Positions 34,941 to 52,458 of a stretch of 64,000 bases of DNA are shown here, piece by piece. The notes beneath the pieces are model-generated. The model was given only the letters and a program-made list of their open reading frames with translations, searched no databases and was not told the origin of the DNA. How positions within the stretch are numbered: the first letter of the stretch is position 1; each line of letters starts with the position of its first letter. Both the position numbers and the translations under genes were made by a program. Where the stretch lies: the NCBI GenBank assembly GCA_047602405.1, contig JASGHJ010000001.1:480001-544000 (forward strand), written 5' to 3'. This stretch comes from Anaeromyxobacteraceae bacterium. GTDB taxonomy: Bacteria > Myxococcota > Myxococcia > Myxococcales > Anaeromyxobacteraceae.

Positions 34941-34946
34941 GACTTT

Positions 34947-34985
34947 CCGAGGGGTTCCGTCACCAGGCGGGACCCCTCGGTCGTT
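34947..34985 (+). terminator. hairpin after tRNA-Gly
   Basis: ccgaggggttccg...cgggacccctcgg stem followed by tcgtt. Confidence 0.5.
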
Positions 34986-35120
34986 CTGGACAACCGCGCG
35001 GACAACCTTTTCGCGGGTCTCAGCCGGGAAGCTACGCCCTGATCCCTGCTCGGTGGGTGTGTTCCGGCGGGCGGCCACGGACCGCGCTGAGCAGTGGGCG
35101 GGTCTGATAGTCTCTTCACG

Positions 35121-35677: not shown

Positions 35678-35681
35678 TCCC

Positions 35682-36785
35682 CTAGCCCACGACGTCGGCG
35701 CCCTGCGGCGCCGTGGTCGGGTTCGCCAGGGGACGACGACGGAGCGTTACCGAGGCACGAACGGCCCCCGGCATCCCGATCGACACCACGTTCCGCGCCC
35801 TCGCGAGCCGCTCCGGCAGCATGTGCTGGTAGAGCCTCGTGACGCTCTCCTCGCTGTGCCCGAGGATCTCGGCGAGGAGGCCCAGGTCGGGCACCTTCGC
35901 GAGGAAGTGTGACGCGAAGGTGTGACGCAGCGTGTGCGGCCCGCCGGTCACGCCCGCCTTCTTGCGGACCGCGTTGAACTGCCGCTTCGGCCAGAACTTC
36001 CAGCGGTCGCCGGTACGGCTGGGGAACACCCACTTCTCGGACGCTCGCGCCCCAGAGAGGAGCGGCCAGAGCCCGTTCGAGATCGGCACCTCGCGCGGCT
36101 TGCCGTTCTTCGGCTGCCACTCGTCGGACGGCCAGATCCGGAGCTCCCGGCGCTGGGCGTCCACCTGCGGCCAGGTGAGCGCCAGCGCCTCGCCCTTGCG
36201 CATTCCGGTGTTCAGGAGACAGACCACGATCGGCAGGATCTCCGGCTCGAGCTCCTGACAGGCGACGAGGAACCGGTCGATCTCGTCGAGCGACCACGCC
36301 CGGACACGCCGCGTCTCCTCGGGGAGGAGCTTCACCGCCACGTCCGCGACCGGGAGCTTCCGCTCCTTCCGCGCGAAGTTGATGACGATGCGGAGGACGC
36401 GCAGCTCGTTGTTAATGGAGACGTTGCGGAGCCCGGCCGCGCGGCGGCGCTCGATGTAGTCGTCGATGAGCCTGGAGTGGAGCTCTGTGAGCTTCCAGCG
36501 CCCGAAGTGCTCCATCAGGAACGCGAGGAGCGAGGCGCGCTTCTGCCAGGTGTTCGCCTTGACGTACTTCTCAGCGTGCGGGCGGTAGTGGGTCACGCAG
36601 AAGCTTGAGAAGGTCGGCACGGTTCGCGGATCGAGGTCCGGGTCGGCCGCCTCGAGCTTGAGCCGCTCGCGCGCCTCGAACGCCTTCGCCTCCTCCTTCG
36701 AGCCGTGGACGACCCAGTCCTTCCGCTTCCCGCGGAACTTGATGACCACCGTCCAGCGGCCCTTCCCCTTCGTATAGACCGGCAC
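35682..36785 (-). CDS. tyrosine recombinase / phage integrase
   Basis: complete catalytic set: TGMRKGE, KNGK, HTLRH, LGH, RLY. Confidence 0.93.
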   Translation of the reverse strand: MPVYTKGKGRWTVVIKFRGKRKDWVVHGSKEEAKAFEARERLKLEAADPDLDPRTVPTFSSFCVTHYRPHAEKYVKANTWQKRASLLAFLMEHFGRWKLTELHSRLIDDYIERRRAAGLRNVSINNELRVLRIVINFARKERKLPVADVAVKLLPEETRRVRAWSLDEIDRFLVACQELEPEILPIVVCLLNTGMRKGEALALTWPQVDAQRRELRIWPSDEWQPKNGKPREVPISNGLWPLLSGARASEKWVFPSRTGDRWKFWPKRQFNAVRKKAGVTGGPHTLRHTFASHFLAKVPDLGLLAEILGHSEESVTRLYQHMLPERLARARNVVSIGMPGAVRASVTLRRRPLANPTTAPQGADVVG

Positions 36786-37113
36786 CGGCCACCTCCCTGG
36801 CCATGAGCGCGACGTGCACTTCGAGGGCAGCCCGCGCGACGCGCCAGTGCTTGCCGAGCTTCCGCGCGCCCGGGATACGCCCGAGCCGGCAGTACTCGAC
36901 CACCGTGGTCACCGGGAGCTGCAGGTGCTCCGCCACCTGCTGCGGCGTCAGGAACGTCGGGGCTCGACGGTCGCCGAGGGCGGCACCGCGCTGCTCCCTG
37001 AGCGGCCAGCTCGACGCTCGGGGCTGCGCGGGGTCCGAGCTCCCACGCGAGCTCGGAGGCGCAGAGCCCTCCCACTCAAAGGTCGCCTGCCCGATGTCCA
37101 CGCGCCTCGTCAT
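36571..37113 (-). CDS. excisionase-like HTH protein (overlaps integrase start)
   Basis: FLTPQQVAEHLQLPVTTVVEYCRLGRIPGARKLGKHWRV. Confidence 0.7.
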   Translation of the reverse strand: MTRRVDIGQATFEWEGSAPPSSRGSSDPAQPRASSWPLREQRGAALGDRRAPTFLTPQQVAEHLQLPVTTVVEYCRLGRIPGARKLGKHWRVARAALEVHVALMAREVAGAGLYEGEGPLDGGHQVPREAEGLGRPRLEGGGEGVRGARAAQARGGRPGPRSANRADLLKLLRDPLPPAR

Positions 37114-37123
37114 GGCAGGTCGG

Positions 37124-37489
37124 TCAGCGCCTCGAAGGCTTCCCGCCCTCCGCGCCGGAGCGGTCGAACCCAGGCCCGCGCTCCTTGACCTGGTCGTACC
37201 GGAACGTGAGGAGCCGCATGAGGTACTCGCGGCGGCCCACGCCGAGCGCGGCGCAGTCGGCCTCGAGCTTCTCGACCATCGGGTCGGGGAGCCCGTACCA
37301 GTTGTAGAGGTCGTTCAGGATGCCGACCGCGAACTCGTTGAACGAGACGCCGCGTGCGTCGGCCTGGGAACGACACCACCCGCCGAGATCGGCCGGCATC
37401 CGGAAGGTGACCACCGTCTTCTCGGTGGTGACGACCTCCCTCATGGCGGGGATCGGGTCCTGGGGCGGCTTCTGGGCAGCCATCGACAT
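37124..37489 (-). CDS. ribbon-helix-helix-like DNA-binding protein
   Basis: VVTFRMPADL...ARGVSFNEF alternating strand plus helix-G-helix pattern. Confidence 0.55.
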   Translation of the reverse strand: MSMAAQKPPQDPIPAMREVVTTEKTVVTFRMPADLGGWCRSQADARGVSFNEFAVGILNDLYNWYGLPDPMVEKLEADCAALGVGRREYLMRLLTFRYDQVKERGPGFDRSGAEGGKPSRR

Positions 37490-37549
37490 CACCTCGTCAG
37501 GGTAGTGGGTTCGCGCATCGAGGCGCAAGCGTTTTCGGTTCACTATTGA

Positions 37550-37567
37550 ATCCGGTTTAAACCGGAT
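37550..37567. promoter_or_regulatory. perfect 18-bp palindrome (candidate operator)
   Basis: ATCCGGTTT|AAACCGGAT upstream of the RHH-xis-int genes. Confidence 0.5.
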
Positions 37568-37725
37568 CCGACCACGACCGCGCGACCGTAGCCTGCCTTG
37601 GGCAGGCACGTCTCTGCGTTCCGGTGGTTGCAGGGATCGGGCGCCTTAGGCACAGGCACCGCAACAGCCCAGGCGCGGTGCCCCGGCGAGCCGTCAGAAT
37701 GAATTTCATAACGCGTTCATAACGA

Positions 37726-39420
37726 TCATTTCGTCGGCCCCGCGGCCAGCCGCGGACCGGGCCGGTACTGCGCGCCGCGCCGCTCGCCTTCCGCGAGGAG
37801 GTAGCCCTGACTGACGAGCCGGCCCAGCTCTCGCGTCGCGACGGGGCGTGCGACACCGATCAGGTCGCGGTAGTCCGCGTTCTTCAGCACCTCGTGCGTC
37901 GCGAAGAAGGTTCGGAGCGCCGGTAGCCGGGCCTCCAGCCAGGCCCTCGTCTCGTGGAGCTCGGGCGAGATCCGCCAGGTGGCGCTGCGACCGTGCCCCT
38001 CCGCTCTGAGGACGCCCATCGCGACCATCTCCTGGATCTCGCGGTAGGCCTGATCGCGATCGACCTGGTTGAGCTCGCGGTACTCCTCGTTCGTGAACCC
38101 TACCGGGTGGCCGAGGAGAACTCGCCGCTGGGGCGTGGAGAGCGGCAAGCGCTCGACCAGCTGCTTCCACTCCACGCTCGGGCCCTCGAATACGGGCGTG
38201 TTCCTGAGGATGACGCGGAAGGTGGAGTCCCTGACGTCGAACTCGGGATGGCGCAGAAACGACTCGCTCATCTCGGCGAACATCCTCGGGACGCCCTCAC
38301 CCTCCTCCCGCATGATCCCCGCCTCGACGAGGACCCTCGCGATGAGCGGGTTGCGGCTCGAGTGCACCGGCGTGCCCTCTCGCAGCTGGTCGAGCGTGAC
38401 CGGCGGGACGAGCTCGCCCGGGCTGACCACCTCCATGCGGTCGTCGAAGAACCAGACCTCGATTCCCCGGCCCTGGTCTCCGTAGTCGCGGTGTGCGACC
38501 GCGTTGACGATCGCCTCCTGCCACGCGAAGTCCGGGTACTCCGGCACCTCCTTGAAGAAAAGGTGGTGTAGCTTCTCCGACTTCCGGACGTGCTGCGCCG
38601 CGTTCCGGTACGCCTCGGCGATCGCAGCCGCGATCGGCAGATCGACCCTGGGCAGCTGCGTGACATTCCGTGAGCCGCCGTGCCGGCGCTCCGTGCCGTC
38701 CACACGGAAGAACCGGATGTCGAGGTGCGGGTGCCACCTCGAGAGCGGCGCCTTGCCGAAGAGCAGCAGAGCGGCATTCGTCACCGCGATCCCGCCCGCC
38801 CGCGGGAGGACCAGGCCGTACGCCTCCAGGAGCGCCGGGATCGGGAGGTCCCCGCGGATCAGGTTCGGGACGAGCGATCGCACGAGCTCCAGATCGAGAT
38901 CGTCGAGGCCTGCGTCCGTGCGCACCCGCTGCTCGAAGCCGACCCGCCGGTACGCCTGCTTGCGCTCGTTGATGACCTCCTGCGGCTCCCGGATGACGCG
39001 GTCTCCGACACGGAACGGGAAGCCGTCCCCGTCGACCATGACGGCGCTGGGCGAGGGCGCCACCTCGAAGACGATGAGCTCCTTCCCGTCCAGGGAGACC
39101 ACCTGGCCGGCGGCGACGACCGGGCCGTCCCCGGCGGCCGACCGGAGCCGCGACGCGGGGACCTCGAGGAACTTCGCGACCTCGTCGGGCGGGTAGCCGT
39201 GGCCCGAGATCGTCCCGTCATCGTCCACGCCCACGACGAGCGTGCCGCCTTCGGCGTTCGCGAAGGCTGCGACGTACTCGGCGATGAAGTCCCGGACCTT
39301 CTTGCGCTCGAGCGGCTTCCTGGCCGCGCCCGAGAGATCCCACGCGGACTTGAACTCGAGGAACTGACCTTCCTGCCTCGTGAGCAGTGCTCGCAGCTCG
39401 GGCTCGGTCAGCTGGGTCAT
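37726..39420 (-). CDS. Schlafen-like AlbA_2 + HATPase_c_4 + wHTH protein (often annotated RecG-like)
   Basis: EGQFLEFKS, AFANAEGGTLVVGVDDDG, EAIVNAVAHRDY, SRNPLIA, GEGVPRM, two C-terminal wHTH-like units. Confidence 0.85.
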   Translation of the reverse strand: MTQLTEPELRALLTRQEGQFLEFKSAWDLSGAARKPLERKKVRDFIAEYVAAFANAEGGTLVVGVDDDGTISGHGYPPDEVAKFLEVPASRLRSAAGDGPVVAAGQVVSLDGKELIVFEVAPSPSAVMVDGDGFPFRVGDRVIREPQEVINERKQAYRRVGFEQRVRTDAGLDDLDLELVRSLVPNLIRGDLPIPALLEAYGLVLPRAGGIAVTNAALLLFGKAPLSRWHPHLDIRFFRVDGTERRHGGSRNVTQLPRVDLPIAAAIAEAYRNAAQHVRKSEKLHHLFFKEVPEYPDFAWQEAIVNAVAHRDYGDQGRGIEVWFFDDRMEVVSPGELVPPVTLDQLREGTPVHSSRNPLIARVLVEAGIMREEGEGVPRMFAEMSESFLRHPEFDVRDSTFRVILRNTPVFEGPSVEWKQLVERLPLSTPQRRVLLGHPVGFTNEEYRELNQVDRDQAYREIQEMVAMGVLRAEGHGRSATWRISPELHETRAWLEARLPALRTFFATHEVLKNADYRDLIGVARPVATRELGRLVSQGYLLAEGERRGAQYRPGPRLAAGPTK

Positions 39421-39549
39421 GGCTCGCCGGAGCTTACCGCCCACCCCTGGCCTTCGCACCAACCCGTTCCCGCGGTGCCTCCCCGATTCGCACTCCTTCG
39501 CGTTCCTTCGCGCATCTCGCCGACTGCTCGCTTCTCTCTTGCGCGCGCG

Positions 39550-40901
39550 TGTGCAACCGGGAGGAGGGGTGACGTTTTAGACCGGGCTGATGGGTGACAC
39601 CCGCCTCGGGTTTTCCTCGAGGAGGTCGAGGTCAGGCCGCTTCGGTTCCGGTCACCTCCTGGGGTTGGGTGCCAATCGCGGTGAAGCGCTTCGTGCGGGC
39701 GTCGAAGTGCCCCAGGTCGAGCTGCATGAACGAGACGACCCAGCGGCCATCGTCGATCTCGCGCATGCCTACCAGCTCTCCCACGAGCACGGTCGACAGG
39801 AAGAACCGTTCGCCTTTGCGAACGACGATGTCGCCGTTTCCTCGCACGCGCTGCACGCGGTCGTGCATCGGGTACTCGGGCTCAGGCAGCTTCTCCGGCA
39901 TCTCGCGCCCTGACTTCACGTAGAAGTCGGCCGGCAGCTTCTGGCCGAGCGCCTCGTGAGGCCGGTCGTGGTTGTAGACGTCGATGAACTTGTCGAAGCG
40001 CTCTTGCTGCTGCAGGAGGTTGTCGCCCGCGGGGCGGGTCGTCTCTTCCTTGAGCACGAGGTGCATCCGTTCGTGCTGCCCATTTTGTTCTGGGTGCGCG
40101 GGCGCGATCCGCTCGGGCCAGATCCCCAACCTGAGCCATCTCGCGGAGAGCCTGCTCAGGCCCCAGAGCCCTGGCGCGGCGAACGGGTTGCCGTTGTCGG
40201 TCCGGATGACGAGTGGCAGGCCGAACTCGCGAAATGCCTGGTCGAACACGGTGATCGCCGTGTCGACGTGCGTGCCCTCGAGCGCCTCACAGCGAATGAG
40301 GTAGCGGCTGAACCGGTCGGTGATCGTGAGCGGGTAGCAGTACCGACCTGTTCCCAGCTTGAACTCGCCCTTGAAGTCGGCGCACCAGATGTCGTTCGGC
40401 CGCTCCGCCTTGCGCAGCGGAGCTCCGCGCGGCATCACGCTGCGCCGGCGGCGTTTCCGGAGCATCACGCCGTTCCGCTTCAGGATGTCGCCGATCGTGC
40501 TCGCGCAGGGTACGGCGAGCTCCGGTTGTCGAAGCAGCAGATGCGCCCGGATCTTCTTCGGCCCCCAGGTCGGATGCTCCTGGCGAAACTCGACCAGGAA
40601 CTTCTCGACCTCCGCTGGCGTGCGGTGCGGGATCCTCCTCGGAGCGTGCGAGCGGTCGAACAACGCTCGCGCACCGTCCTCTTCGTAGCGCTCCCGCAGC
40701 TTGTAGGCCGTCTTCCGGCTGATGCCGAACTCGTAGCAGAGGTCGACGACCCGCTCCCCCTGCTCCCACCGCTTCACGAACTCCAGACGCTCCGACACAG
40801 GGTCACGTTCTCTCCAGGGCACGCGCACCTCCAGGCACGTACCCAGCGTGTGTCACCCATCAGCCCGGTCCAGTTCGTCACCTATCTACCCGGTTCAGAC
40901 C
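39550..40901 (-). mobile_element. IS481-family insertion sequence
   Basis: imperfect ~50-bp terminal inverted repeats sharing gaccgggctgatgggtgacac, flanking the transposase; exact ends uncertain. Confidence 0.85.
39632..40822 (-). CDS. IS481-family DDE transposase
   Basis: MPWRE start, WGPKKI, WCADFKG, RTDNG, QNGQHERMH, YNHDRPHEAL. Confidence 0.92.
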   Translation of the reverse strand: MPWRERDPVSERLEFVKRWEQGERVVDLCYEFGISRKTAYKLRERYEEDGARALFDRSHAPRRIPHRTPAEVEKFLVEFRQEHPTWGPKKIRAHLLLRQPELAVPCASTIGDILKRNGVMLRKRRRRSVMPRGAPLRKAERPNDIWCADFKGEFKLGTGRYCYPLTITDRFSRYLIRCEALEGTHVDTAITVFDQAFREFGLPLVIRTDNGNPFAAPGLWGLSRLSARWLRLGIWPERIAPAHPEQNGQHERMHLVLKEETTRPAGDNLLQQQERFDKFIDVYNHDRPHEALGQKLPADFYVKSGREMPEKLPEPEYPMHDRVQRVRGNGDIVVRKGERFFLSTVLVGELVGMREIDDGRWVVSFMQLDLGHFDARTKRFTAIGTQPQEVTGTEAA

Positions 40902-41058
40902 TTATCCTGTCGCTCTACACGGCCTCGCTCCCCCAACTGCTCTTCCTGGTTTCTCATCGTTTCCTACCACCACATCCGTTCCTCTCCTCACCTCCTTCCT
41001 TGCTTCCTTGCCTTCCTTGTCCTTGCCCCACCCACCCTCACCACCTCTTCTTCCTCTC

Positions 41059-41123
41059 GGGTCCCAGTGTCCCGACCCCTCTCTCCAAGTCGTTGGGAGG
41101 GAGGGGTCGGGACACTGGGACCC
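41059..41123. repeat. 23-bp perfect inverted repeat (hairpin)
   Basis: gggtcccagtgtcccgacccctc (41059-41081) / gaggggtcgggacactgggaccc (41101-41123). Confidence 0.85.
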
Positions 41124-41200
41124 CCTTGCTCTCTCTCGAACGGCCTCTCCCGGTGGGTGGGGCAAGGACCGCGGTTTCGGGCGCTTGGATCGGCTTTGCC

Positions 41201-41298
41201 TGCCTAATGGCCTGCCGAACAGGGTGCCTACCAGGGTGCCGAACCGACTCGGCACCCCGTTCGGCAGCTCCATTCGGGCTGCCTAACGGGTGCCGAAG
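41201..41298. repeat. cluster of TGCC(G/T)AAC-like short repeats
   Basis: direct copies at 41201, 41213, 41225, 41237 (12-bp period), 41280 and 41291; inverted copies at 41249 and 41259. Confidence 0.7.
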
Positions 41299-41423
41299 AT
41301 CGGACGTCAGTGCTGACGTCTACGCACCGTGCACTTCACGGCGGGTCGCGAGCTGGCGGACCGCCTTCTCGGCTTGCCCGGTGTTGGCGAACACCGAGAT
41401 CCGCAGGAATCTGAACTTGCCGG

Positions 41424-42197
41424 TCACGACTTCTTCTTGCGGCGCCGGGTAGCGGTCGCCTCCTTGGAGAGCTCGGCCTCGCGCCTCCGGTAGCTCTCGC
41501 CCTCGATGCTGATGATCTCGGAGTGGTGGACGAGGCGGTCGATGAGGGCGGTCGTGCAGGCGGCGTTCGGGAAGATCGTCGGCCAGTCCGCGAACGCCAG
41601 GTTCGAGGTGATGACGACGCTCTTGCGCTCGTAGCGGCGCGAGACGACCTGGAAGAGCAGGTCGGCGTTGCGGTTGTCGTAGGAGAGGTAGCCGATCTCG
41701 TCGATGACGAGCAGGCCGGTGCGCGTGCAGTAGTGGCGGAGCCGCTGGTCGAGGGCGCGGGCCGACTCCTGGGCGCCGAGGTCGAGGAGGAGCTGGGCGG
41801 CGGTCGTGAAGAGCACGGAGTGGCCGGCGAGCACGGCGGCGCTGGCGATGTTCTGGGCGATCATCGTCTTGCCGAGGCCCTGGGGCGCGACCAGGACGAC
41901 GTTGTGGGCCTTCTCGAGGAAGTCGAGCGAGACGGCGCTCTCGACCGCGTCGCGGTCGATGCGTTTCGGCCAGGCCCAGTCGAAGTCGGCCATGGGCTTG
42001 AAGGCCCCGAGCTTGCTGCGGCCCAGGCGGCGCTCCAGGCTGCGGCGGGCGCGGTCCTCGGCCTCGATCCGCGCGACGTGCTCGAAGATCTGGTGGGCAC
42101 CCCAGCGGTTCTTGGTGGCGAGGGCGACGAGGTCGTCGAGGATGTCGGCGGTGTGGCGCAGGCCGAGGGTGCGGAGCTGGTCCTTGATGTCGTTCAC
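41424..42197 (-). CDS. istB: IS21 helper ATPase
   Basis: APQGLGKT Walker A, LLVIDEIGY Walker B, ALIDRLVHH. Confidence 0.93.
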   Translation of the reverse strand: MNDIKDQLRTLGLRHTADILDDLVALATKNRWGAHQIFEHVARIEAEDRARRSLERRLGRSKLGAFKPMADFDWAWPKRIDRDAVESAVSLDFLEKAHNVVLVAPQGLGKTMIAQNIASAAVLAGHSVLFTTAAQLLLDLGAQESARALDQRLRHYCTRTGLLVIDEIGYLSYDNRNADLLFQVVSRRYERKSVVITSNLAFADWPTIFPNAACTTALIDRLVHHSEIISIEGESYRRREAELSKEATATRRRKKKS

Positions 42198-43693
42198 GGC
42201 GTCTCCTTCTTGGGCTTGGCGAGGGCGTCGTAGCTGTCGAGGGCGTGCGGGGTGACGCGGAGATCGCGCACGCGGGGATCGTCGGGGAGGACCACGTCGA
42301 GCTTCGGGGCCTGCCGGCGCGCGCGGGTCCGCTGATCGAGGACGTGCGCGACGGAGGCGGCCCCGATGGCGCCGCGCGCGAGGGCATCCTTGAGCGCCGC
42401 CTCGAGCTGAGCGGAGTCGTAGCGGTCGAGGAGCCTGAGCAGCCGGGTGACCTGGCCGCCGAGGTGCTCGCCACGGACGGCGAGCGCCTCCAGGAAGGGA
42501 TCGGCGCTCGGGCAGGCCGCGCGGAGCCGGTCCCGGCCGCGCAGGTCGTGGGCGCGGCGCTTCTCCCGCGCGAGTTCCTCGATGTGGGCGGAGTCCTCGA
42601 TCACCTGCTTCTCGTCCCAGCTCCGCTTGTGCGTCGCGAAGACGTGCGAGCCGTTGGTGATCCGGACCTCGTCCTCGGTGGCGACGAGGACGAGCGGCTT
42701 GCCGACCAGGTGGTGGGGGATCGAGTAGTCGTTGCGGTCGAAGCGGATGTAGGGCTGCTTGCCGGACGTGACCCAGCGGGTGGCGTGGCAGTCGTAGGGG
42801 TGCTCGGGGAGCGCGAGCAGGCGAGGCCGCTCCTCGGCGAGGGCGTCTCGCACGAGCCGGCCCTCGGGGTCACCCGGCACCTTGCGCGCGTGCGCGGTGC
42901 GCTCGACCCAGGCAGCGAGCTGGGCGTTGAGGTCCTGGACCGAGGAGAAGCGCCGGGCGGCGAAGAAGCCGTGGCGCAGGTACTGGATGGTGCGCTCGAC
43001 CTTGCCCTTCTCGTTGCCGCGATACGGCGCGCAGGGCTTGGGCGCGAAGTGGTAGTGCCCGGCGAAGAACAGCATCGCCTCGTTGAACCGGACGTGGTCG
43101 CCGGCGCGTTCGAGGACGACGCTCTTCAGGTTGTCGTAGAGGATGGTCCTTGGCACGCCACCGAGCGCCTCGAACGCCGCGACGTGGCCGCGCTGGAAGC
43201 TCTCGAGCGTCTGGTCGAGCGCGAAGCGGGCGTAGATCGCGCGCGACCACGAGAGCACCATCACGAAGCACGACAGCGCCCGCTTCGCGTGGCCAACCCT
43301 GATCGTGCCGAAGTGTCCCCAGTCCACCTGCGCTTGCTCGCCCGGGAGCGTCTGCAGGCGCAGGTACGCCTCGCTCCGCGGCGCCGGCCGTACCGTGGCG
43401 ACGTACCGGCGAAGCTGGATGACCGAGCCCCGGTAGCCGCGATCCCGGGCCATCTCGAACAGGCGCGTCGCGCGGAGACGCGGGTGCTGCTCGAGCGTCT
43501 CGCCTACGAACGCCTTGTAGGGATCGAGCATCGAGGGCCTGTGGACCACGGCCGGCCGCAAGAACCGCTCGGCCTCGATGGCTCGCCGGACGGCGTCGTG
43601 ATGGACGCCGAGCTCGCCGGCGATGGTGCCGATGCGCCAGTGCTCGGCGAAGAACAGCCGGCGGATGCGGGCGCGCAGCTCGGCCGGGATCAT
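42194..43693 (-). CDS. istA: IS21 transposase
   Basis: PGEQAQVDWG, YDNLKS, EKGKVERTI. Confidence 0.93.
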   Translation of the reverse strand: MIPAELRARIRRLFFAEHWRIGTIAGELGVHHDAVRRAIEAERFLRPAVVHRPSMLDPYKAFVGETLEQHPRLRATRLFEMARDRGYRGSVIQLRRYVATVRPAPRSEAYLRLQTLPGEQAQVDWGHFGTIRVGHAKRALSCFVMVLSWSRAIYARFALDQTLESFQRGHVAAFEALGGVPRTILYDNLKSVVLERAGDHVRFNEAMLFFAGHYHFAPKPCAPYRGNEKGKVERTIQYLRHGFFAARRFSSVQDLNAQLAAWVERTAHARKVPGDPEGRLVRDALAEERPRLLALPEHPYDCHATRWVTSGKQPYIRFDRNDYSIPHHLVGKPLVLVATEDEVRITNGSHVFATHKRSWDEKQVIEDSAHIEELAREKRRAHDLRGRDRLRAACPSADPFLEALAVRGEHLGGQVTRLLRLLDRYDSAQLEAALKDALARGAIGAASVAHVLDQRTRARRQAPKLDVVLPDDPRVRDLRVTPHALDSYDALAKPKKETP

Positions 43694-43702
43694 CGAACTG
43701 CC

Positions 43703-44173
43703 TCACCGTGGCGCGCGGGACCGAAAGCGTCGCTGCCGCTCGGGGCGGCCGGTGCGGGCAAGCGTGTCGTGGCGAACGAATCGGCCGCGGATCCCGCAGC
43801 GCGCGCAGCAGAGGCGCCGCGCGCCCGGGCAGGCGTGGGAGTGAGCATGGGCGGTGACCTCGGCGCCGGTCGAGCTCGGCGCCGACATGGCGCCCGCCGC
43901 CGGCGAGGCGCGCACCATCGCGGAGGAGGCCGCCGCCTCGCGACCGTGATGCGTCACTTTCGAGCGAGCGCGACCGCGGTATCGCCGCTGGCGGTCGGCG
44001 TGGGCGTGCCGCCCCTCGATGCTGAGCTGGTACCGCCGCCCGGCCGCGGCGAGGCACGCGCGCCGGGCCGTGCGCGCGCACGCAGCCCCGCAGTACCGGT
44101 GGCCCCGGTCGCAGTGTCGGCAGAGGAAGAACACCTGCCCGCACGCAGGAAGCGCGCAGGCCACGAACCGCAA
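43703..44173 (-). CDS. Cys-rich zinc-finger-like accessory ORF inside IS21
   Basis: CALPAC, CRHCDRGHRYC..C, CARCG; co-oriented just upstream of istA within the IRs. Confidence 0.65.
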   Translation of the reverse strand: MRFVACALPACGQVFFLCRHCDRGHRYCGAACARTARRACLAAAGRRYQLSIEGRHAHADRQRRYRGRARSKVTHHGREAAASSAMVRASPAAGAMSAPSSTGAEVTAHAHSHACPGARRLCCARCGIRGRFVRHDTLARTGRPERQRRFRSRAPR

Positions 44174-44459
44174 CGATTCCAGACGCCCTCAGCGAGGGCG
44201 CGTGGAAGTGGACCGGCGGCGTCAGGCGTGCGATCACCGGACCGCTGGTGATCAGGCGCCCTGCTTGAACCGGCCGAAGGCTCGGAGCGCGAACTCCGGG
44301 CCTTCACTCTTTCGCCCTGCCGATACCTGGCTACCCGTGAACGGCTGACCCGGCCAGTTCCCGGCCGATCCTCACGCCGTCGGCGGGGCGTCCAGAATCA
44401 CGCTCTTCCTGGTGACCGCCAACACCCGGGGCGGAGCCGGGCGGGTAATCACTGCGCGA

Positions 44460-44700
44460 CCGACGACCGACTCGGTCGGCAGTAGCTTCAGGGGGCTGGC
44501 AGTCCACCCGTTCGAGCAGCTTCCGACGGCTCGCGCCGTAGATCCGCATCCCTTCAGCGCCTCGGGCGAGAGGAGAGTCTCGTGCCGTAGCCTGGCCATG
44601 ATCCACCGCTCGGCGATCAGCACGGCGACCTGGCCTTGGCCTTGTTGTCGCGCGGCGTTGCGGTACGCGCGGGCAGTACTGTCGCGCCGTGGTGCCGCAC
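44460..44700 (-). pseudogene. degenerate fragment of a second IS21-family transposase
   Basis: frameshifted HHGATVLPAR..PRD, VAVLIAERWIMARLRHET, MRIYGASRRKLLER. Confidence 0.65.
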
Positions 44701-44706
44701 CAGGTC

Positions 44707-45034
44707 CTAGTAGGTGAGCTGGAACCCCAGTACGTACCGGCGGCCCGGCGGCCCGGGTACGGTCGGCGTCTCCAGCCACGTCATCAGCGTGTGCCGCTTC
44801 ACGGCGAGCTCGCGCGAGATCGCCGCCACAGGGGCGTCGGCCGCCCGCCGTCGCAGGAAGTACACTTCCGGAGCGCGGCCGGGTACAACCGCGCCGCGCC
44901 TGGTGGGCCGCCCGCCGCACCGCTCCCGGAACTCCGCCGCCGTCTTCTCCGTCTCCATCGCGCGCCTCCTGTGCAAGCCCGCGAGAATCAGAGCGCTGCA
45001 GCTGAAGTCACGACAGGGCGGAGCGAGGACTTAC
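44707..45034 (-). pseudogene. degenerate IS (IS66 TnpA-like HTH) fragment
   Basis: VAAISRELAVKRHTLMTW HTH; GTAAG-type end at 45034. Confidence 0.4.
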
Positions 45035-45210
45035 GCCAGCCGGACGTGGAGGAGTTCCGCCGGACGCGCTGGTCCCGAAACCGGCGGAGCAGCTCCTCCG
45101 CCGTGCGCGCACTTGGGCGCTCAACTGACCGATCGCTCTGCGCGAGCTCCGGTACGCCGACTGCCCCACCGGACGCCACGGAACAGATCAACCTCATCCG
45201 ACATCCACAT

Positions 45211-45681
45211 CTAAGGCGTAGGACCAAGGACGATACCGAAACACAGTGCGAGTTCTTCGTCGCAGTTCGGAGGGAACAGGGCCGGATCAGGACAGAAGCA
45301 AGACAGCAGGGTGCAACCCGCGGCGGAGTACTCTGCTAGCAACTTGTCGAGCCCGCTAGCGCGATTGGGGTTCACGGCGATGAAGCAAGGACCCGAACAG
45401 AGGCCCCTCAGCACCTCGGTTCCGTCTACCAAGACTTCGCTAATAGTACCAGGTCGCCCGAACGCGCATTGCCCCGACATGGAGGGATCGCACACGCGTG
45501 CATCTGGCAGGGCAACCTTGTAGTCGGTTGCAATCGCAAGGCACGAACGGGTCACGGGAGAGTCGGGGGGGGCCTCGGGGGGCGCGGGCGACGGCCCGCA
45601 ACCCCCGAGTACGAGGCTGATACAAAGCGCTATGCCGCCAGCCTGCACCTTATGTCCGTCCCTATTCGCAGTTGGGCACAC
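45211..45681 (-). CDS. Cys-rich putative lipoprotein
   Basis: LVLGGC lipobox-like motif, many Cys; start uncertain; GC visibly lower than the host backbone. Confidence 0.55.
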   Translation of the reverse strand: MCPTANRDGHKVQAGGIALCISLVLGGCGPSPAPPEAPPDSPVTRSCLAIATDYKVALPDARVCDPSMSGQCAFGRPGTISEVLVDGTEVLRGLCSGPCFIAVNPNRASGLDKLLAEYSAAGCTLLSCFCPDPALFPPNCDEELALCFGIVLGPTP

Positions 45682-46666
45682 ATGCCCCGTCGATACATGT
45701 CATCCCTGCCAGGTACCACCTGTGCGTCTCTGGGTCGAAGCACTTTGGACCGCGGGCACAGACGCCCGAGCACACATAGGTACCCCTACACCCGTCAGGA
45801 ACCACGGTTCCGCAGGCAGTGCCCGCCGGGCATACCGGGTTGGGGACGCAGTACGTGAGGTTAATGCTGCTCCCGGAGACAGACGCCGCGTATGAGCAAC
45901 TAGGCGCCAATGCGGTTGTGTAAGTTTCCCAAGGCAAGGATGAATTCGAGTAGCTGTTTCCACCTACGTCGCGTGCCTGGAAGTTCGAGAAGGTGACGCC
46001 AGTCGCGAGAGGCAGATGAGAGCAACTGTCCAAGTTGTACACTTCGAGGGCTCCACCCACTCCAAGCGTGACTGGACGTGTGACGTTTTGGACCTGAATG
46101 GTTGTGAGAACCGAGCTCATACCCGAGGTGGCACCTGTCGAAACCGTCCAATTCGAGCAAATCCCTGTCCCCGGCGAGCAGTTGGCGCCCTGGATCTGCC
46201 CGGTAACCGTGTTCCCAGGCTGGACCGGAATCGGGGTTGAATACGTGGAGTTGCCGTCTGGCCTGTAGTTCCAGCTTACAATGGTCCATCTGGGCCCATC
46301 CCAACCCAGATGATTCCAGGCAAGGACTGGCTGCAGGAGGAACTCGTTCGGAAGAGGTAGTGCACCGGGGAAGTAGTACAGAACCTGGTTGGCCACGACG
46401 CTGGGCGCCGAGGGGACCGTCCACGTGGCTTGGATGTTGGAGAGCGGCGTGTCGTAGAAGCGAGCTTCCGCAACCCAGGCCCAGTACATCGGTGGTAGCG
46501 AGGCGTTCGCGCTCGATGACGTTCCAGATGGACGCATCTCTCTGCCAGCCTTGTCGAAGCGCGTTCTTGCGCACGGAGACGGTCGCCTGACCGTTCCCAG
46601 GCGGGTATTTAGCAGCGAACCATCACTCTGAGTGATCTCATGCTCGTGAATGGGACGCCGATCCAC
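45662..46666 (-). CDS. secreted-type beta-sandwich (G1/A4 peptidase-like) protein with Cys-rich tail, probably 5'-truncated
   Basis: WTVPSAP, LLQPVLAW, LEVY pattern; C-terminal CVP..C...CG..PDGC. Confidence 0.5.
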   Translation of the reverse strand: MDRRPIHEHEITQSDGSLLNTRLGTVRRPSPCARTRFDKAGREMRPSGTSSSANASLPPMYWAWVAEARFYDTPLSNIQATWTVPSAPSVVANQVLYYFPGALPLPNEFLLQPVLAWNHLGWDGPRWTIVSWNYRPDGNSTYSTPIPVQPGNTVTGQIQGANCSPGTGICSNWTVSTGATSGMSSVLTTIQVQNVTRPVTLGVGGALEVYNLDSCSHLPLATGVTFSNFQARDVGGNSYSNSSLPWETYTTALAPSCSYAASVSGSSINLTYCVPNPVCPAGTACGTVVPDGCRGTYVCSGVCARGPKCFDPETHRWYLAGMTCIDGACVPNCE

Positions 46667-46834
46667 TCGACCGCGGAGAGCTTCACCGCCAAGTACGGGG
46701 GCCGGATCGAAAACGTGTTCGAGGATCTCGGTCTCCTCGTTCTGCAGGACATCGACGCCACGGTTGCTGAGCAGATCTCGAACGAGCCTTCGGTGTGCTT
46801 CGTCGAGCAGGACGACTACATCACCGGCGGCTGA
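46640..46834 (+). pseudogene. protease inhibitor I9 / subtilase propeptide-like fragment
   Basis: KYGGRIENVF...ISNEPSVCFVEQD; followed by a hairpin at 46850-46893. Confidence 0.5.
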
Positions 46835-46905
46835 TACTCACTTCTCAAGAACGGACGGGGCCGCCAGCACTTGCCGGCGGCCCCGTTTCGTTTCTCCTCG
46901 TCGCA

Positions 46906-47457
46906 CTAGCGGCGCGACGGCCGGCGCTTCGTGTTCTCGTCCTCGCCGTCCTCGTCGTCGGTGTCCTCCTCGACGTCCTCCAGCGAGTCCAGCTCCGGGT
47001 CCTCGATCCACTCCACGACGGTCTTGCGGTGCACGATGGCCATGGTGGCCTCCTTTCCATCCGACCTTACGGACGCGACCGTCTCCGGCCCAGGGGGCGG
47101 CACCAGTACCCCGTGACCGCGAGTCACGAACCGGCTCACCCGTTTCCGCAGTCGCGCCGCGAGGCGCAGGCGCCCACCGATGTCCTGCACCCTGCCGGCG
47201 GCCGCCGCCGCGCGATGCGCGACCTGGGCGGACGTGAGGCCGGACGCCATCAGCTGGGCGACCAGCCGGGCCTGCTCGGAGATGGCCAGCCGGAGGTTGT
47301 TCTTCGCCACCTCCACGGCCGACTCCGCGCTCAGCTCGGCGCGGACGGCGCCGGCGAACGCCTCCATGAGGGCGCGGTGCTTCGGCATGTTCCAGTACCC
47401 CGTAGCCCCACCCTTGTCGGTGGTCGCCGGGGGACGAGACGACCTCGCGGTGGCCAT
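46906..47457 (-). CDS. hypothetical protein with acidic tail (internal start possible at 47043)
   Basis: open frame; strong AAGGAGG before MAIVHRK; D/E-rich C-terminus. Confidence 0.5.
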   Translation of the reverse strand: MATARSSRPPATTDKGGATGYWNMPKHRALMEAFAGAVRAELSAESAVEVAKNNLRLAISEQARLVAQLMASGLTSAQVAHRAAAAAGRVQDIGGRLRLAARLRKRVSRFVTRGHGVLVPPPGPETVASVRSDGKEATMAIVHRKTVVEWIEDPELDSLEDVEEDTDDEDGEDENTKRRPSRR

Positions 47458-47627
47458 GATCCCCAGGACTGTCGAGGGTGATCCCCTGTCGCCTCGAACG
47501 CACCGGGCCGTGATCCCCTCCCGTCCTTGGCTGCGTTCGGCGCTGGATTCCCCCAGGTCGTTCGTGGGGTTCGCTGCGTTGCGTCCACCCCCACCGCGAA
47601 CATGACGGTCGCTTCGGGATCCCCTGC

Positions 47628-47850
47628 TCACCGGCGATCCCTCCCCATGAACTCGTCGAGGTCGCGGACCCGGACGCGCACCGCGTTGAGCACGCGGAAG
47701 GACCGCAGCTCGCCCGAGGCGCAGAGCTTGTAGACGGTCGCGGTGGAGCACCCCAGCGCCTCCGCCACGGCCCGCACGGTCAGCGCCTGAGTGCCTCTGA
47801 TGGCCCGCAGGCGCGGCCGCCGGCCTCCCGGGCCGTTCTGTGCGGTGGAT
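47628..47850 (-). CDS. excisionase-like HTH protein next to attR (start uncertain)
   Basis: LTVRAVAEALGCSTATVYKLCASGELRSFRVLNAVRV. Confidence 0.75.
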
Positions 47851-47974
47851 GTGACAAAACCTCTGCCACGGCCTGGGAACGCGTGGGACGGCTGGACCGG
47901 GACCGCGGCGTCGACTGTAGCCGTGGGGAACCCTTGCGAAGACGTGAGGACCGCTGGACCGCCACCCTCGAATT

Positions 47975-48021
47975 TTCCCAAGCTGAGGGTCGCCGGTTCG
48001 AACCCGGTTTCCCGCTCCAGA
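47975..48021 (+). repeat. att site: copy of tRNA-Gly 3' half
   Basis: identical to 34896-34942. Confidence 0.93.
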
Positions 48022-48207
48022 TTCGGGTGATTTGGCGAGGGCTTCCAGGGCGACCTGGAAGCCCTTCGTCGTTCCAGGTCTCTTCCGATGGTTGTCCGGC
48101 CGCGTTGTCACCCTGGCCCCGGCGCCTCGAACGCCTGTGTGAGCTCGTGGAGTTCGGCGCGCCGACCCTCAGCCTTCCTGCCTGCGCGCTGGCACCGTGA
48201 ACCATGG

Positions 48208-48236
48208 TTGACACCTTGCGGAGCCCGCCCTAGGTT
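48208..48236 (+). promoter_or_regulatory. sigma70 promoter, probably giving a leaderless toxin mRNA
   Basis: TTGACA (48208), 17 nt, TAGGTT (48231); ATG at 48243, no Shine-Dalgarno. Confidence 0.65.
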
Positions 48237-48242
48237 CTTCCC

Positions 48243-48533
48243 ATGTGGACGGTCCTCACGACGGAGGCCTTCGACGCCTGGTTCTCGGCGCTGAGGGACC
48301 GGAGGGCGGCCCGCCGCATCCAGGCGCGCATCGACCGCGCGGAGGCCGGGAACTTCGGCGACTGCGCCCCGGTGGGCGAAGGCGTCTCGGAGATGCGGAT
48401 CCACCACGGCCCCGGCTACCGGGTCTACTTCGTCCAGCGTGGGCTGGAGGTCATCGTCCTCCTCGGCGGAGGAGACAAGGCCACGCAGGCAAAGGACATC
48501 GCGAGTGCGCTCGCGCTGGCGAAGCAGTTGTAG
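48243..48533 (+). CDS. RelE/ParE-family toxin (addiction module killer protein)
   Basis: GNFGD..VGEGVSEMRIHHGPGYRVYF, LLGGGDK.TQ.KDI. Confidence 0.9.
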   Translation: MWTVLTTEAFDAWFSALRDRRAARRIQARIDRAEAGNFGDCAPVGEGVSEMRIHHGPGYRVYFVQRGLEVIVLLGGGDKATQAKDIASALALAKQL

Positions 48534-48542
48534 GAGGTACCC

Positions 48543-48857
48543 ATGGCGACCAAGCCCAAGGCGAAGCTCAAGCTCAGGAAGTGGGACTCGGCCGAGCACC
48601 TCGAGACCGAGGAGGACATCGCTCTCTACTGGGAGGCCTGCCTCGAGGAGGCGGCCGGAGACCCGGCGTTCATCACCGCGGCCCTTGCCACCATCGCCAA
48701 GGCCCGCGGCATGACGGCGCTGGCCCGCGATACGGGCCTGACGCGAGAAGGGCTCTACAAGGCGCTCTCGCCCGACGGCAATCCCGAGTTCGCCACCGTG
48801 ATGAAGGTCATCCGCGCGCTCGGGCTTCATTTGCATGGCTCCGTGGCTCGGACCTGA
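48543..48857 (+). CDS. addiction module antidote protein (Xre-HTH antitoxin)
   Basis: WDSAEHL, IAKARGMT.LA..TGL.REGLYKALS..GNPEF. Confidence 0.9.
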   Translation: MATKPKAKLKLRKWDSAEHLETEEDIALYWEACLEEAAGDPAFITAALATIAKARGMTALARDTGLTREGLYKALSPDGNPEFATVMKVIRALGLHLHGSVART

Positions 48858-48916
48858 CCTCCGCGGCGAAGCTCGGGGAGCGACGGGCGCCGCCGGGCAG
48901 GTGATAGGCTCGCAGC

Positions 48917-50173
48917 GTGCCTCACCGTCCCGGCGCGCTCGGCTCCATCGACCCCCTCTCAGTCCCACTCCCTCACGGGACCGAGGTCACCACCCGCGTC
49001 GAGCGCACCCTCGGTGACCGCCGGATCCCGCAGGGTGTCGTGGGCAGGGTCGTCGCAGTGCGCGACGAGGGACTGGACGTCCTCGTGACCGGCATCGGCG
49101 TCGTCCGGTACGCCCGTGCGGAGCTCCTCCCTCGCCGCCCTGGTCAGGTCCGCTACGCCGAGCGCCGCGAAGCCGATTGGAGCGCGCTCCGGGGCTGCGT
49201 CGTGCTCGAGGCGACCGTTGGCTCGCGCGCCTGGGGCCTCGCCGACGAGGGTTCGGACACCGACTTGCGTGGCATCTTCGTGCTCCCGTTTCCGTGGACG
49301 ACGGCCCTTCTGGACCCACCGGACACGCTCACGAGCGCCGACGGCAGCGCCACCTACTGGGAGCACCGCAAGGGCATCCACCAGGCGCTCCGCGCCGATC
49401 CGAACACGCTCGAGCTCCTGTTCGTGCAGACCGCCGAGCCGAAGGACCCCATCGGCGAGTGGCTCCTCGAGGCGCGCGATGCGTTCGCGACGGCCGACCT
49501 TTTCGGGAGCTTCGGCCGCTACGCGGTGAGCCAGCTCGGCAAGCTATCCCGCTCCGCGCGCCTCGCGGAGCACCGCGGACTCGTCCTGGATTGGCTGCGC
49601 GAGGAGCCCGCGCCCGACCTGGAGGAGGTCGCGCGACGCCTGGCCCGCGTCTCTCCAAGACCCGCCCCGACGCCGTCAGAAGGGGTCCACGCGGCGAAGG
49701 AGTACGTGAAGCAACTCTATCGCTCACTGTCCGATCAGGGGCTCACGGCCTCGAACGACTTCGCCGGACTGGTCGCCTACGCGCGCGACGGCGGCGCGCA
49801 GCCCGAGCCCGCGCGCGAGCTCCGCCCCAAGAACGCGTACAACCTGCTGCGGCTCGTGCATGTCGCCACGGGATGGCTCCGCACCGGCCATCCCGACCTT
49901 GAGATGAAGGGAGCGGTCCGCGACCGGCTCCTCGCCGTGAAGCGGGGCGTGGTCTCGCTCGAGGAAGTGCTCGCCGAGGCGGAAGCGCTCGTCCCGGCAC
50001 TCGAGGCGGCACGCGACGCCACGCCGCTGCCGCGTGGGCCCGACCTCGTTAGCGCCGACAGGCTCCTTAGGCGAATCGGGGAGGAGGTGGCGCGGCGCTG
50101 GGTCGAGCGCGTGCCCGGTTCGTTCGGCGTGGCGGCGCCCCTGCCCCCAACGCGACCGGAGTCCGCGCCATGA
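48917..50173 (+). CDS. Pol-beta superfamily nucleotidyltransferase (RlaP/YcgL-like) with extra N-terminal beta domain
   Basis: GSRAWGLADEGSDTDLRG, ADPNTLE, KNAYNLLRL. Confidence 0.82.
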   Translation: MPHRPGALGSIDPLSVPLPHGTEVTTRVERTLGDRRIPQGVVGRVVAVRDEGLDVLVTGIGVVRYARAELLPRRPGQVRYAERREADWSALRGCVVLEATVGSRAWGLADEGSDTDLRGIFVLPFPWTTALLDPPDTLTSADGSATYWEHRKGIHQALRADPNTLELLFVQTAEPKDPIGEWLLEARDAFATADLFGSFGRYAVSQLGKLSRSARLAEHRGLVLDWLREEPAPDLEEVARRLARVSPRPAPTPSEGVHAAKEYVKQLYRSLSDQGLTASNDFAGLVAYARDGGAQPEPARELRPKNAYNLLRLVHVATGWLRTGHPDLEMKGAVRDRLLAVKRGVVSLEEVLAEAEALVPALEAARDATPLPRGPDLVSADRLLRRIGEEVARRWVERVPGSFGVAAPLPPTRPESAP

Positions 50174-50961
50174 AGGATCTGCTCACCCCGCACCAGCTCG
50201 CGGTGGCGGATCGGGTGCTCGACGAGGAGGACTCGGCGCGCCGCCACCTCGTCATCTCGCTCTCCGGCGGTCACGCCTACGGCTTCCCGTCGCCGGACTC
50301 CGACCTCGACCTCAAGGCGATCCACGTCGCACCGACCGAGGCGCTCCTCGGCCTCGCCCCGCCCGCCGCCAACGCGCCGGACCGCATCGAGGTCATCGAG
50401 GGCGTGGAGATCGACTACTCCTCGAACGAGCTCCAGCAGGTGCTCGTAGGGGTCCTGCAGGGGAACGGCAACTTCATCGAGCGGATCCTGTCCCGGTTCG
50501 TCCTTCGCTCGTCCCCTGAGCACGAGTCGCTGCGGCCGCTGGTGGCGCGAAGCCTCTCGCGCAGGCTCCACAGGCACTACCGCGGGTTCGCCTCCGGACA
50601 GCTCCGCGAGTGGGAGAAGGACGGGTATCGCTCGGCAAAGAAGCTCTTGTACGTGCTCCGGACGGCGCTCACAGGTACGCACGCGCTCCTGACCGGCGCG
50701 ATCGAGACCGACGTCACGCTCCTCCTCGATGCGCACGGGTTCGGTGCCGCGCGCGAGCTCGTCGACGCCAAGCGCCGGGGTGAGCGCGCCTCGCTGCCGC
50801 CTGAGGTCTCCGAACGCTGGAAGCTCGAGGTGGGCCGGGCGTTCGACGTCCTCGACGGAGCCCTCGCGAGCTCGGTGCTGCCCGAGGGGCCTCCGAACGC
50901 GGAGGACCTCGAGGCGTGGCTCCTCGACGTCAGGAGACGCGCCCTCGCGACCGGAACATGA
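50170..50961 (+). CDS. Pol-beta superfamily nucleotidyltransferase (RlaP/YcgL-like)
   Basis: SGGHAYGFPSPDSDLDLKAIH, GNGNFIE, HYRGFA, KKLLYVLR; ATGA overlap. Confidence 0.85.
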   Translation: MKDLLTPHQLAVADRVLDEEDSARRHLVISLSGGHAYGFPSPDSDLDLKAIHVAPTEALLGLAPPAANAPDRIEVIEGVEIDYSSNELQQVLVGVLQGNGNFIERILSRFVLRSSPEHESLRPLVARSLSRRLHRHYRGFASGQLREWEKDGYRSAKKLLYVLRTALTGTHALLTGAIETDVTLLLDAHGFGAARELVDAKRRGERASLPPEVSERWKLEVGRAFDVLDGALASSVLPEGPPNAEDLEAWLLDVRRRALATGT

Positions 50962-51065
50962 ACGCTATTCCTCAGTGGAGGATTTCGTGAGCTGGAACCT
51001 TCGGCCGTCGCAACGCCCCTCGTCCTTCCGGCAACTTGGCACCTGCGCGAAGACCGCCCTGAACA

Positions 51066-51110
51066 TTCCCAAGCTGAGGGTCGCCGTTTCGAACCCGGTT
51101 TCCCGCTCCA
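51066..51110 (+). repeat. second att copy of tRNA-Gly 3' half (one mismatch at 51087)
   Basis: ttcccaagctgagggtcgccgTttcgaacccggtttcccgctcca. Confidence 0.9.
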
Positions 51111-51124
51111 ATCCTGGATGAACC

Positions 51125-51152
51125 GAACGCCCGGTGACCCCGGGCGTTCTTT
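51125..51152 (+). terminator. intrinsic terminator
   Basis: gaacgcccgg-tgacc-ccgggcgttc followed by T residues. Confidence 0.65.
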
Positions 51153-51909: not shown

Positions 51910-52458
51910 GTGCCCCGCTCCGTCGAGACCCGCCCCGAGCTCCTCGCGAAGGCGTGGGCCTTGCCGGTGGCGGCGAGGTACGCCCCGCTGAGATCGCAGG
52001 GCTTCCGCGCGGTGTGCGGGCCCACCAGCGTCACCAACGTGCTCCGCTCCCTCGGACACGACCGCGGCGCCAACCCGCTCCGCGGCTTCGGCCTGCGCGC
52101 GATGAGCCTCGAGCAGGTGGTGCGCGAGGGCGGCGAGGTGATGCCGCCGGGCTGGACGGCGGCGGTGGTCCGCCCCTCGAGCGTCGCTGCCCTCCGGGAC
52201 GAGCTCCGCACGTCGAACGATCCCCGCCGGCGCTTCATCGCCAACTTCTCCCGGGCCCCGCTGTTCGGCCGGGGCGGTGGGCATCACTCACCCGTGGGCG
52301 GCTACCTCGAGGCCGAGGACCTCGCCTTCGTGCTGGACGTGAACTCGAGCTTCGGGCCCTGGCTGGTCCCGACCGAGCTCTTGCACCAGGCGATGAGCTC
52401 CGTCGACCGCGGCGACGGCCGCGCCCGCGGCCTGGCCCGGTTCGAGGCGGGTGGGTGA
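51910..52458 (+). CDS. phytochelatin synthase-like (papain-fold) protein
   Basis: CGPTS Cys, GGGHHSPVGGY His, VLDV Asp. Confidence 0.8.
   Translation: MPRSVETRPELLAKAWALPVAARYAPLRSQGFRAVCGPTSVTNVLRSLGHDRGANPLRGFGLRAMSLEQVVREGGEVMPPGWTAAVVRPSSVAALRDELRTSNDPRRRFIANFSRAPLFGRGGGHHSPVGGYLEAEDLAFVLDVNSSFGPWLVPTELLHQAMSSVDRGDGRARGLARFEAGG

Follow-up and report, generated by a model that had tools for sequence, protein, structure and literature searches.

Within a 64,000-nucleotide stretch of an Anaeromyxobacteraceae genome (GenBank assembly GCA_047602405.1, contig JASGHJ010000001.1, positions 480,001 to 544,000; hereafter the window), we characterized two adjacent genes encoding nucleotidyltransferases (NTases) of the RlaP family, here called A and B, which are carried together with a toxin-antitoxin (TA) pair on a small islet behind a tRNA-Gly gene. 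By their overlap, co-occurrence and natural fusions, A and B are a real coupled unit, as a preliminary description of this DNA had supposed. We are moderately confident that they form a conserved RlaP pair acting as an RNA 3'-end nucleotidyltransferase, in which B would be the catalyst and A a binding or regulatory partner. What is new is an A with an SH3/KOW barrel, a helical insert and Ser in place of the third catalytic Asp, beside a B with all three Asp. The two genes are:

48917-50173, + strand: RlaP-A, 418 aa (PF10127, E 5e-16, 59.5 bits against a cut-off of 23)
50170-50961, + strand: RlaP-B, 263 aa (PF10127, E 5e-28, 98.8 bits against a cut-off of 23)

The profile check placed both proteins above the PF10127 cut-off, confirming that they are RlaP-like, and the ATGA overlap already reported for them was located at 50170-50173. 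Among the matches listed from genome contigs, which comprised 66 A loci, B followed A in 58, while of the remaining eight, three ended at a contig edge, one held another A type, and four had no B within 8 kb. An ATGA or GTGA overlap joined 40 of the 48 intact pairs. Complete A-B fusions made up 23 of the best 150 A-profile matches among 50%-identity representatives, and further fusions were found in three Myxococcota genomes, in L066 and in 5/80 metagenome loci, the last with an alignment as query, a single fusion protein having returned nothing. Pairwise distances of A and of B were correlated (rho = 0.77) over 48 pairs, which are not independent of one another.

The closest titled homologs belonged to Anaeromyxobacteraceae and other Myxococcota. 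PF10127 was detected in 156/355 Myxococcota genomes, with two matches, not always adjacent, in 147 of these 156. RlaP is near-core in a sister family (f6), where 129/171 genomes had PF10127 and individual genera reached 16/16, 21/21 and 7/7; in the window's own family it was found in 5/58 genomes. Gene order around the pair was fixed within Corallococcus, Myxococcus, Archangium and Sorangium but differed between these genera, and a quick B tree (39 rows) roughly tracked taxonomy, placing the window in a five-row clade with L028, L069, G023 and G144 (Shimodaira-Hasegawa-like approximate likelihood ratio test, SH-aLRT, 97). All four RlaP copies among 37 genomes of the window's genus, as well as those of G144, L028 and L073, were located in or beside tRNA-Gly arrays. 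Given that A was frameshifted or deleted in the three other genus copies, the pair appears dispensable in those genomes; the window copy is intact. The ratio of nonsynonymous to synonymous substitution rates (dN/dS) was 0.13-0.18 for both A and B in comparisons with G144 and L028, and 0.08 for the NTase core of A, and both genes are under purifying selection. The pair was probably kept vertically for the most part, and would be carried in tRNA-Gly integration arrays in the window's family, the setting in which it had first been described. Two viral contigs in IMG/VR (L138 and L139), with lengths of 135 and 203 kb, also carried a full myxobacterial-type A-B pair, B being seen beside A; viral contigs searched with B's own patterns yielded no B.

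A is composed of an SH3/KOW barrel (residues ~14-76), an NTase core (93-212), a helical insert (217-292) and a helical C-terminal domain, and B of an NTase core followed by a helical C-terminal domain. AlphaFold2 models were confident, with predicted local distance difference test values of 88 for A and 92 for B, and both reproduced the NTase plus helical C-terminal arrangement of RlaP, the structure of the biochemically studied enzyme PfRlaP being absent from the fold matches. The extra N-terminus of A, previously read as SH3/Tudor-like, was modeled as an SH3-type barrel, matching Hpy99I best (Z 9.3, root-mean-square deviation 1.2 over 54 residues) and also NusG/Spt5 KOW, ribosomal eL21 and Tudor domains at Z 7-8, a fold that may indicate RNA or ribosome targeting. 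Sequence searches of the PDB gave no match for A or B, Foldseek gave no match at E<=0.001 for A, and no significant Pfam family or solved-sequence match was obtained for A's SH3 region and insert, with Atlas matches below 0.9. The insert, ~75 residues long, had not been mentioned in the preliminary description, and there was no support for its assignment as a winged-helix or Z-alpha domain. Searched for as a short protein in its own right, the SH3 region gave 29 matches, each closely related to the N-terminus of A and many probably fragments. One database entry for A begins at residue 57 and is thus without the SH3 domain.

Both proteins carry the GS-motif site and the DxD of RlaP/PF10127, as had been claimed for them; the claim did not extend to the third carboxylate, which is Asp82 in B and Ser144 in A. 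The A motifs are G102-S103, D114 and D116, with Ser144 at the third-carboxylate position in 53/54 aligned rows (the exception being another A type) and in 120/120 homologs, in the register S144...E149. GS, DxD, R118, K305/N306 and R312 are invariant in A, and Asp142 is conserved in 119/121. B has D45, D47 and D82 intact, the last in 35/35 rows and in the same register as in PfRlaP (D82...E87), while its GS-motif site reads G33-G34-H35, with Ala34 in 34/35 aligned rows and Ala, Ser or Gly at this second position across B types. In metagenome pairs, A proteins with both SH3 region and insert had Ser or Thr at the third-carboxylate position, those with the SH3 region only had mostly Gln, and fusions and SH3-less forms had mostly D/E; in cores from viral loci, this position was Asp in 80/84. 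Since the third Asp is absent, we filed A as a divergent RlaP-fold partner and not as a canonical RlaP enzyme, whereas B, by the sequence and fold features tested, would classify as an RlaP member with no ligase gene adjacent.

Our proposal of an RNA substrate, which agrees with the RNA-end-modifying role put forward earlier and is the most likely role for the pair, derives from the biochemistry of PfRlaP and from the hen1/pnkp neighbours of related pairs. According to the preprint describing it, PfRlaP adds one or two nucleoside monophosphates to RNA 3'-OH ends, needs three Asp, prefers cleaved-tRNA mimics and shows little nucleotide choice, its third Asp standing five residues before a conserved Glu in the printed alignment (Fig. 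S3), and neither DNA nor E. coli proteins were labelled by PfRlaP or PaRlaP (Carruthers, Fatma and Huang, bioRxiv 10.64898/2025.12.29.696909). PfRlaP and PaRlaP share with our proteins the family PF10127, the NTase plus helical C-terminal domain, and the GS, DxD and third-Asp register, all three Asp being kept in B. However, PfRlaP is a single protein in an rtcB-rtcA operon, whereas here two paralogs are coupled or fused with no ligase adjacent, and A differs further in its SH3/KOW barrel, helical insert and Ser at the third carboxylate.

In a closely related arrangement, A and B lie in tandem with a 4-bp overlap, as hen1-A-B-pnkp on two Deinococcus plasmids and as hen1-A-B on another one (DGO_RS18445-18460 and two others). 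A of these operons also has an SH3-like region and has lost the third acid (Gln), similar to the islet A, but it has no helical insert, and the genes are embedded in a Hen1/Pnkp repair operon with no TA or att (attachment-site) copies. Stand-alone phage RlaP proteins (the T4 NrdC.11 type, Streptomyces and Arthrobacter phage genes, and IMG/VR loci) resemble A in having an A-type core with GS and DxD, but differ in the mostly intact third Asp, in having no SH3 region or insert, and in having no myxobacterial-type B partner, except on the two viral contigs mentioned above. Pnkp was encoded within two genes of the pair in 5/55 metagenome loci, one of the five also with Hen1, in a scan that covered 55 of the 80 loci and 136 of 178 candidate neighbours. 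KptA, TROVE and MJ1316 were also among the neighbours of RlaP genes, as was a 2H phosphoesterase encoded ahead of solitary B genes. At the islet locus no RNA ligase gene adjoins A-B, while the window's genome encodes hen1-pnkp and two rtcB elsewhere. As judged from gene neighbourhoods, the context of the pair points more to RNA repair than to defence. The proximity of tRNA-Gly and glyQ/glyS in Corallococcus was judged a coincidence, given that other genera have other contexts. The hen1-pnkp operon (G000:C2:375817-379754) makes the window's genome the only one with Pnkp among 59 searched in its family. In several f6 genomes (L124, L125, L126 and L133), the solitary B-type RlaP gene follows a 2H phosphoesterase (LigT/ThpR-like) gene.

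Pol-beta enzymes work by an established two-metal chemistry, in which the metal activating the acceptor hydroxyl is bound by the third carboxylate. Given that A lost this carboxylate, it would bind NTP but transfer poorly, with the conserved Asp142 as a caveat, and a division of labour between the two subunits can be proposed on this basis. We hypothesize that A and B act as one complex, possibly a physical heterodimer, that would extend broken RNA at its 3'-OH ends by one or two nucleotides ahead of ligation, with B as the likely catalytic subunit and A as the likely nucleotide- and RNA-binding partner, and that the pair would have been captured into cassettes at tRNA-Gly(CCC) in the window's family. 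More tentatively, and with distinctly less confidence, the pair could be an obligate catalytic/pseudo-catalytic heterodimer of the RlaP family, in which A gave up primer activation (Ser or Gln in SH3-bearing forms), kept NTP binding, and directs B, via its KOW-like barrel and insert, to one particular kind of damaged RNA, for example nicked tRNA or the ribosome. If this is true, a pseudo-catalytic A would give specificity to a reaction that PfRlaP performs with little nucleotide choice. That sole biochemical RlaP study dealt with single enzymes of little nucleotide specificity and did not settle how the correct base is put back. An RlaP of two subunits, one of them likely blunted and equipped with an extra domain of RNA-binding type, offers a direct handle on this question, since it is near-core in many myxobacteria and naturally fused in some loci. 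Our literature searches retrieved no paper on paired, fused or SH3-bearing RlaP, although tandem or fused RlaP may already be shown in Burroughs and Aravind (2016) or the supplements to it.

Several observations weigh against B as catalyst and A as partner in RNA 3'-end addition. B-type genes stand alone in L119, L120, L124-126 and L133, an intact A has no nearby B in L020 and L062, and PfRlaP works alone, so the chemistry needs no partner (bioRxiv 10.64898/2025.12.29.696909). B is without the Ser of the GS motif, Asp142 could stand in for A's lost carboxylate, and the A halves of fusions mostly keep D/E. The ligase-adjacent pairs are other subtypes, with D or Q as third residue, or a third residue not read, and no insert, while the RNA-repair neighbours of the Ser-type clade are weaker: TROVE in one genome and, at five Myxococcus/Pyxidicoccus loci, MJ1316 on the other strand. 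Moreover, Pnkp was detected in only 38/156 RlaP-positive Myxococcota genomes. RlaP occurred in 38/52 Pnkp-positive and 118/303 Pnkp-negative genomes, a comparison confounded by kinship and genome size and not used as a test.

Split CC- and A-adding enzymes offer an analogy for two active transferases that act in sequence. By this analogy, A and B could both be active in transfer to RNA ends but differ in the nucleotide or end that they prefer, Asp142 replacing the lost carboxylate of A. This explanation is consistent with the invariant GS, DxD, R118, K305/N306 and R312 of A, with the lowest dN/dS being that of its NTase core, with the conservation of Asp142, and with the D/E kept in A of most fusions and non-SH3 pairs. 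However, Asp142 is placed by the model in an Asp-Gly turn between strands 137-139 and 145-149, which could provide a structural reason for its conservation, and other SH3-bearing A subunits, too, have lost the canonical residue, with Gln in its place. We consider two active enzymes unlikely. It is less probable still that the pair modifies a target other than RNA ends, for instance by AMPylating a protein or making an oligonucleotide signal, in the manner of MNT antitoxins or Hailong HalB. The NTase parts of the models matched HalB, aminoglycoside transferases, GlnE and DrrA at Z 8-10, which were among the closest solved folds (HalB at Z 9.0-9.6, root-mean-square deviation ~4), and the helical domain of B matched HEPN folds at Z ~10. 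Yet such Z-scores, at 11-15% identity, are seen throughout the superfamily, the pair has no conserved effector gene next to it, and the preprint reports no labelling of E. coli proteins or DNA by PfRlaP and PaRlaP (bioRxiv 10.64898/2025.12.29.696909). A and B resemble Hailong HalB, HEPN-MNT and further Pol-beta transferases of defence or TA systems in fold (Z 8-10), but these belong to another family.

Returning to the RlaP pair as a probable RNA-end transferase, its position in the window is that of cargo in a tandem tRNA-Gly array, which consists of the following features besides A and B:

34865-34940, + strand: tRNA-Gly(CCC) (ARAGORN), integration target of the whole array
47975-48019, + strand: first att copy, exact 3' 45 nt of tRNA-Gly (0 mismatches, BLAST E 8e-20 in a search within the window)
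48020-48110, + strand: left arm of the islet, a hairpin-like inverted repeat and two TTGTC motifs (48092-48096 and 48105-48109), common to other integrase-less cassettes
48208-48236, + strand: TTGACA-17-TAGGTT promoter-like element, found by eye, ending 6 nt before the toxin ATG
48243-48533, + strand: HI1419-type RelE/ParE-family toxin, 96 aa (TIGR02683, 133 bits against a cut-off of 62.9)
48543-48857, + strand: HI1420-type helix-turn-helix antitoxin, 104 aa (TIGR02684, 119.5 bits; PF21716)
48905-48910, + strand: TAGGCT, a -10-like hexamer 6 nt before the GTG of A
51005-51065, + strand: right-arm remnant of the islet, without the GACAA motifs that related cassettes have 101-112 nt before att
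51066-51110, + strand: second att copy, 3' 45 nt of tRNA-Gly (1 mismatch, BLAST E 4e-17 in the same search)
51125-51149, + strand: terminator-like hairpin beyond the second att copy

The islet spans ~3 kb between the two att copies, the only near-perfect copies of the tRNA-Gly 3' end in the whole genome, and holds four co-oriented + strand genes (toxin, antitoxin, A and B), exactly as the preliminary description had it. Within the tandem tRNA-Gly array it is one cassette with exchangeable cargo: the tRNA 3' end is repeated directly on both sides, and the same ends enclose other cargo in relatives. In the close relative G010, whose flanks are 88-90% identical in DNA, a cassette of 1.1 kb adjoins the tRNA and has the same left and right ends as the islet, with a different TA pair as cargo and no RlaP. 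In L028, the arrangement is att-A-B-att with no TA, and G144 has a TA of the same family in a cassette of its own between att copies, beside a cassette with A and B. Extra tRNA-Gly 3' copies lie downstream of the tRNA in many genomes of the genus, and the flank past the second att directly adjoins an intact tRNA in L098, L099 and L073. In a comparison of cassettes, left arms had TTGTC at +72/+85 and intact right arms had GACAA at -112/-101; the TTGTC motifs may be arm sites, and given that the window's right arm is without the GACAA motifs, the islet may be immobile. Integrase-less tRNA-Gly(CCC) cassettes with a common left end (a hairpin, in some followed by TTGTC motifs) and varied cargo were found in L103, L073, L104, L110 and L115 as well as in the window, in arrays of up to four.

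The TA pair passed both curated NCBIfam cut-offs of the HI1419/HI1420 addiction module, with the toxin gene first, which confirms the RelE-type toxin and Xre antitoxin named previously, and no distinctive difference was found from that module, of which it is an ordinary member. The functional link once drawn between it and the NTases was not supported. A TA of this type abuts the A-B pair in 1/66 loci, namely L073, where a near-identical TA directly precedes A, but A and B are joined by an internal deletion; in L021, a 43-46% TA homolog lies 6 kb from the pair. TIGR02683 was present in 10/37 genus genomes, and in the other RlaP-bearing ones there was no match (G006 and G009) or only a weak, distant one (G023). 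In addition to the cassettes with the same ends and another TA, A has its own -10-like element: TAnnnT stood 5-8 nt before A's in-frame start in 18/69 loci (at 6 nt in 17) vs 1/255 control positions, and the TAGGCT hexamer suggests that the A-B pair has its own promoter. A promoter scan called 0 sites and neither element, the one before the toxin being below the tool's threshold. The toxin and A each start 6 nt after a -10-like hexamer (48208-48243 and 48905-48917), a pattern of leaderless transcripts. The TA genes are likely passengers, a separate cargo of tRNA-Gly cassettes and not part of the A-B unit, although they may help to keep this cassette, whose right arm looks eroded.

The remaining explanation, a dedicated anti-phage system formed by the pair alone or by the four genes with the TA module, would be in line with the location of the copies in or beside tRNA-Gly arrays, with IetAS directly downstream of the pair in G023, with HEC-01 and PIN/Phd neighbours in Sorangium loci, with the TA preceding A in L073, and with RNA repair being a conflict function in itself. 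Against this, PADLOC 2.0 assigned no family to the toxin, A or B, the antitoxin receiving one weak 11-bit AriB row. Among 105 dereplicated near neighbours of the pair from the 66 loci, it gave 4 specific hits (HEC-01A, HEC-01B, PDC-M17 and AbiEi), vs 4 hits, all in one region, among random genes (127 of 129 called in 20 arbitrary regions, kinases and proteins over 1000 aa left out), both being small samples. Hits left out were five kinases, an ABC ATPase and a patatin among the neighbours, and an ABC ATPase and two sigma-54 activators in the random set. Ten further hand-picked genes submitted to PADLOC included IetAS of G023 and, close to a fusion, PDC-S54. Some islands thus do have defence genes near the pair, with no excess seen. 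The preliminary description had named core, syntenic pairs with no defence or island association and no phage or RNA-related phenotype as the finding that would speak against its proposal; half of this applies, as the pair is core and syntenic elsewhere (129/171 f6 genomes, in fixed positions within genera), but island-borne, and this only in the window's family. Together with the rarity of the adjoining TA, the other TA in the cassette of G010, the TA-less cassette of L028 and the separate TA cassette of G144, this makes the anti-phage role the least probable of the explanations considered. The locus itself is likely not a new defence system, and the suggestion of an undescribed system was not supported, because the RlaP family is already named and one of its branches is biochemically characterized. 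In G023 (L085:12151-15519), the IetA/IetS-like genes directly follow the broken pair, and Nmad3, a PLD-domain gene and a methylase lie in the island upstream.

A separate island, not part of the islet, fills the 13 kb from the tRNA to the first att copy (34941-47974). In addition to open reading frames (ORFs) with no family assignment, this island includes:

35682-36785, - strand: tyrosine integrase (PF00589, E 3e-23), outside the islet
37726-39462: Schlafen-AlbA_2/RecG-C protein
39632-40828: rve-type insertion sequence
41424-43693: IS21 istA/istB
47628-47981, - strand: excisionase-like HTH_17 ORF (PF12728, E 3e-11) at the far end of the island, with its true start probably downstream of the listed TTG

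The label "integrase-less" therefore fits the cassette, but the island between the tRNA and the first copy does encode a tyrosine integrase and an excisionase-like ORF. Given that this island has GACAA motifs at its own ends, its integrase could serve as a helper for the integrase-less cassettes. The island is absent from the corresponding site in G010. Before the tRNA, a methyl-accepting chemotaxis gene (window 32022-34802) is missing from most of the relatives fetched, in which the upstream gene abuts the tRNA. Just outside the islet, at 51910-52458, lies a stand-alone gene of the phytochelatin synthase family (PF05023), and G010 has one too.

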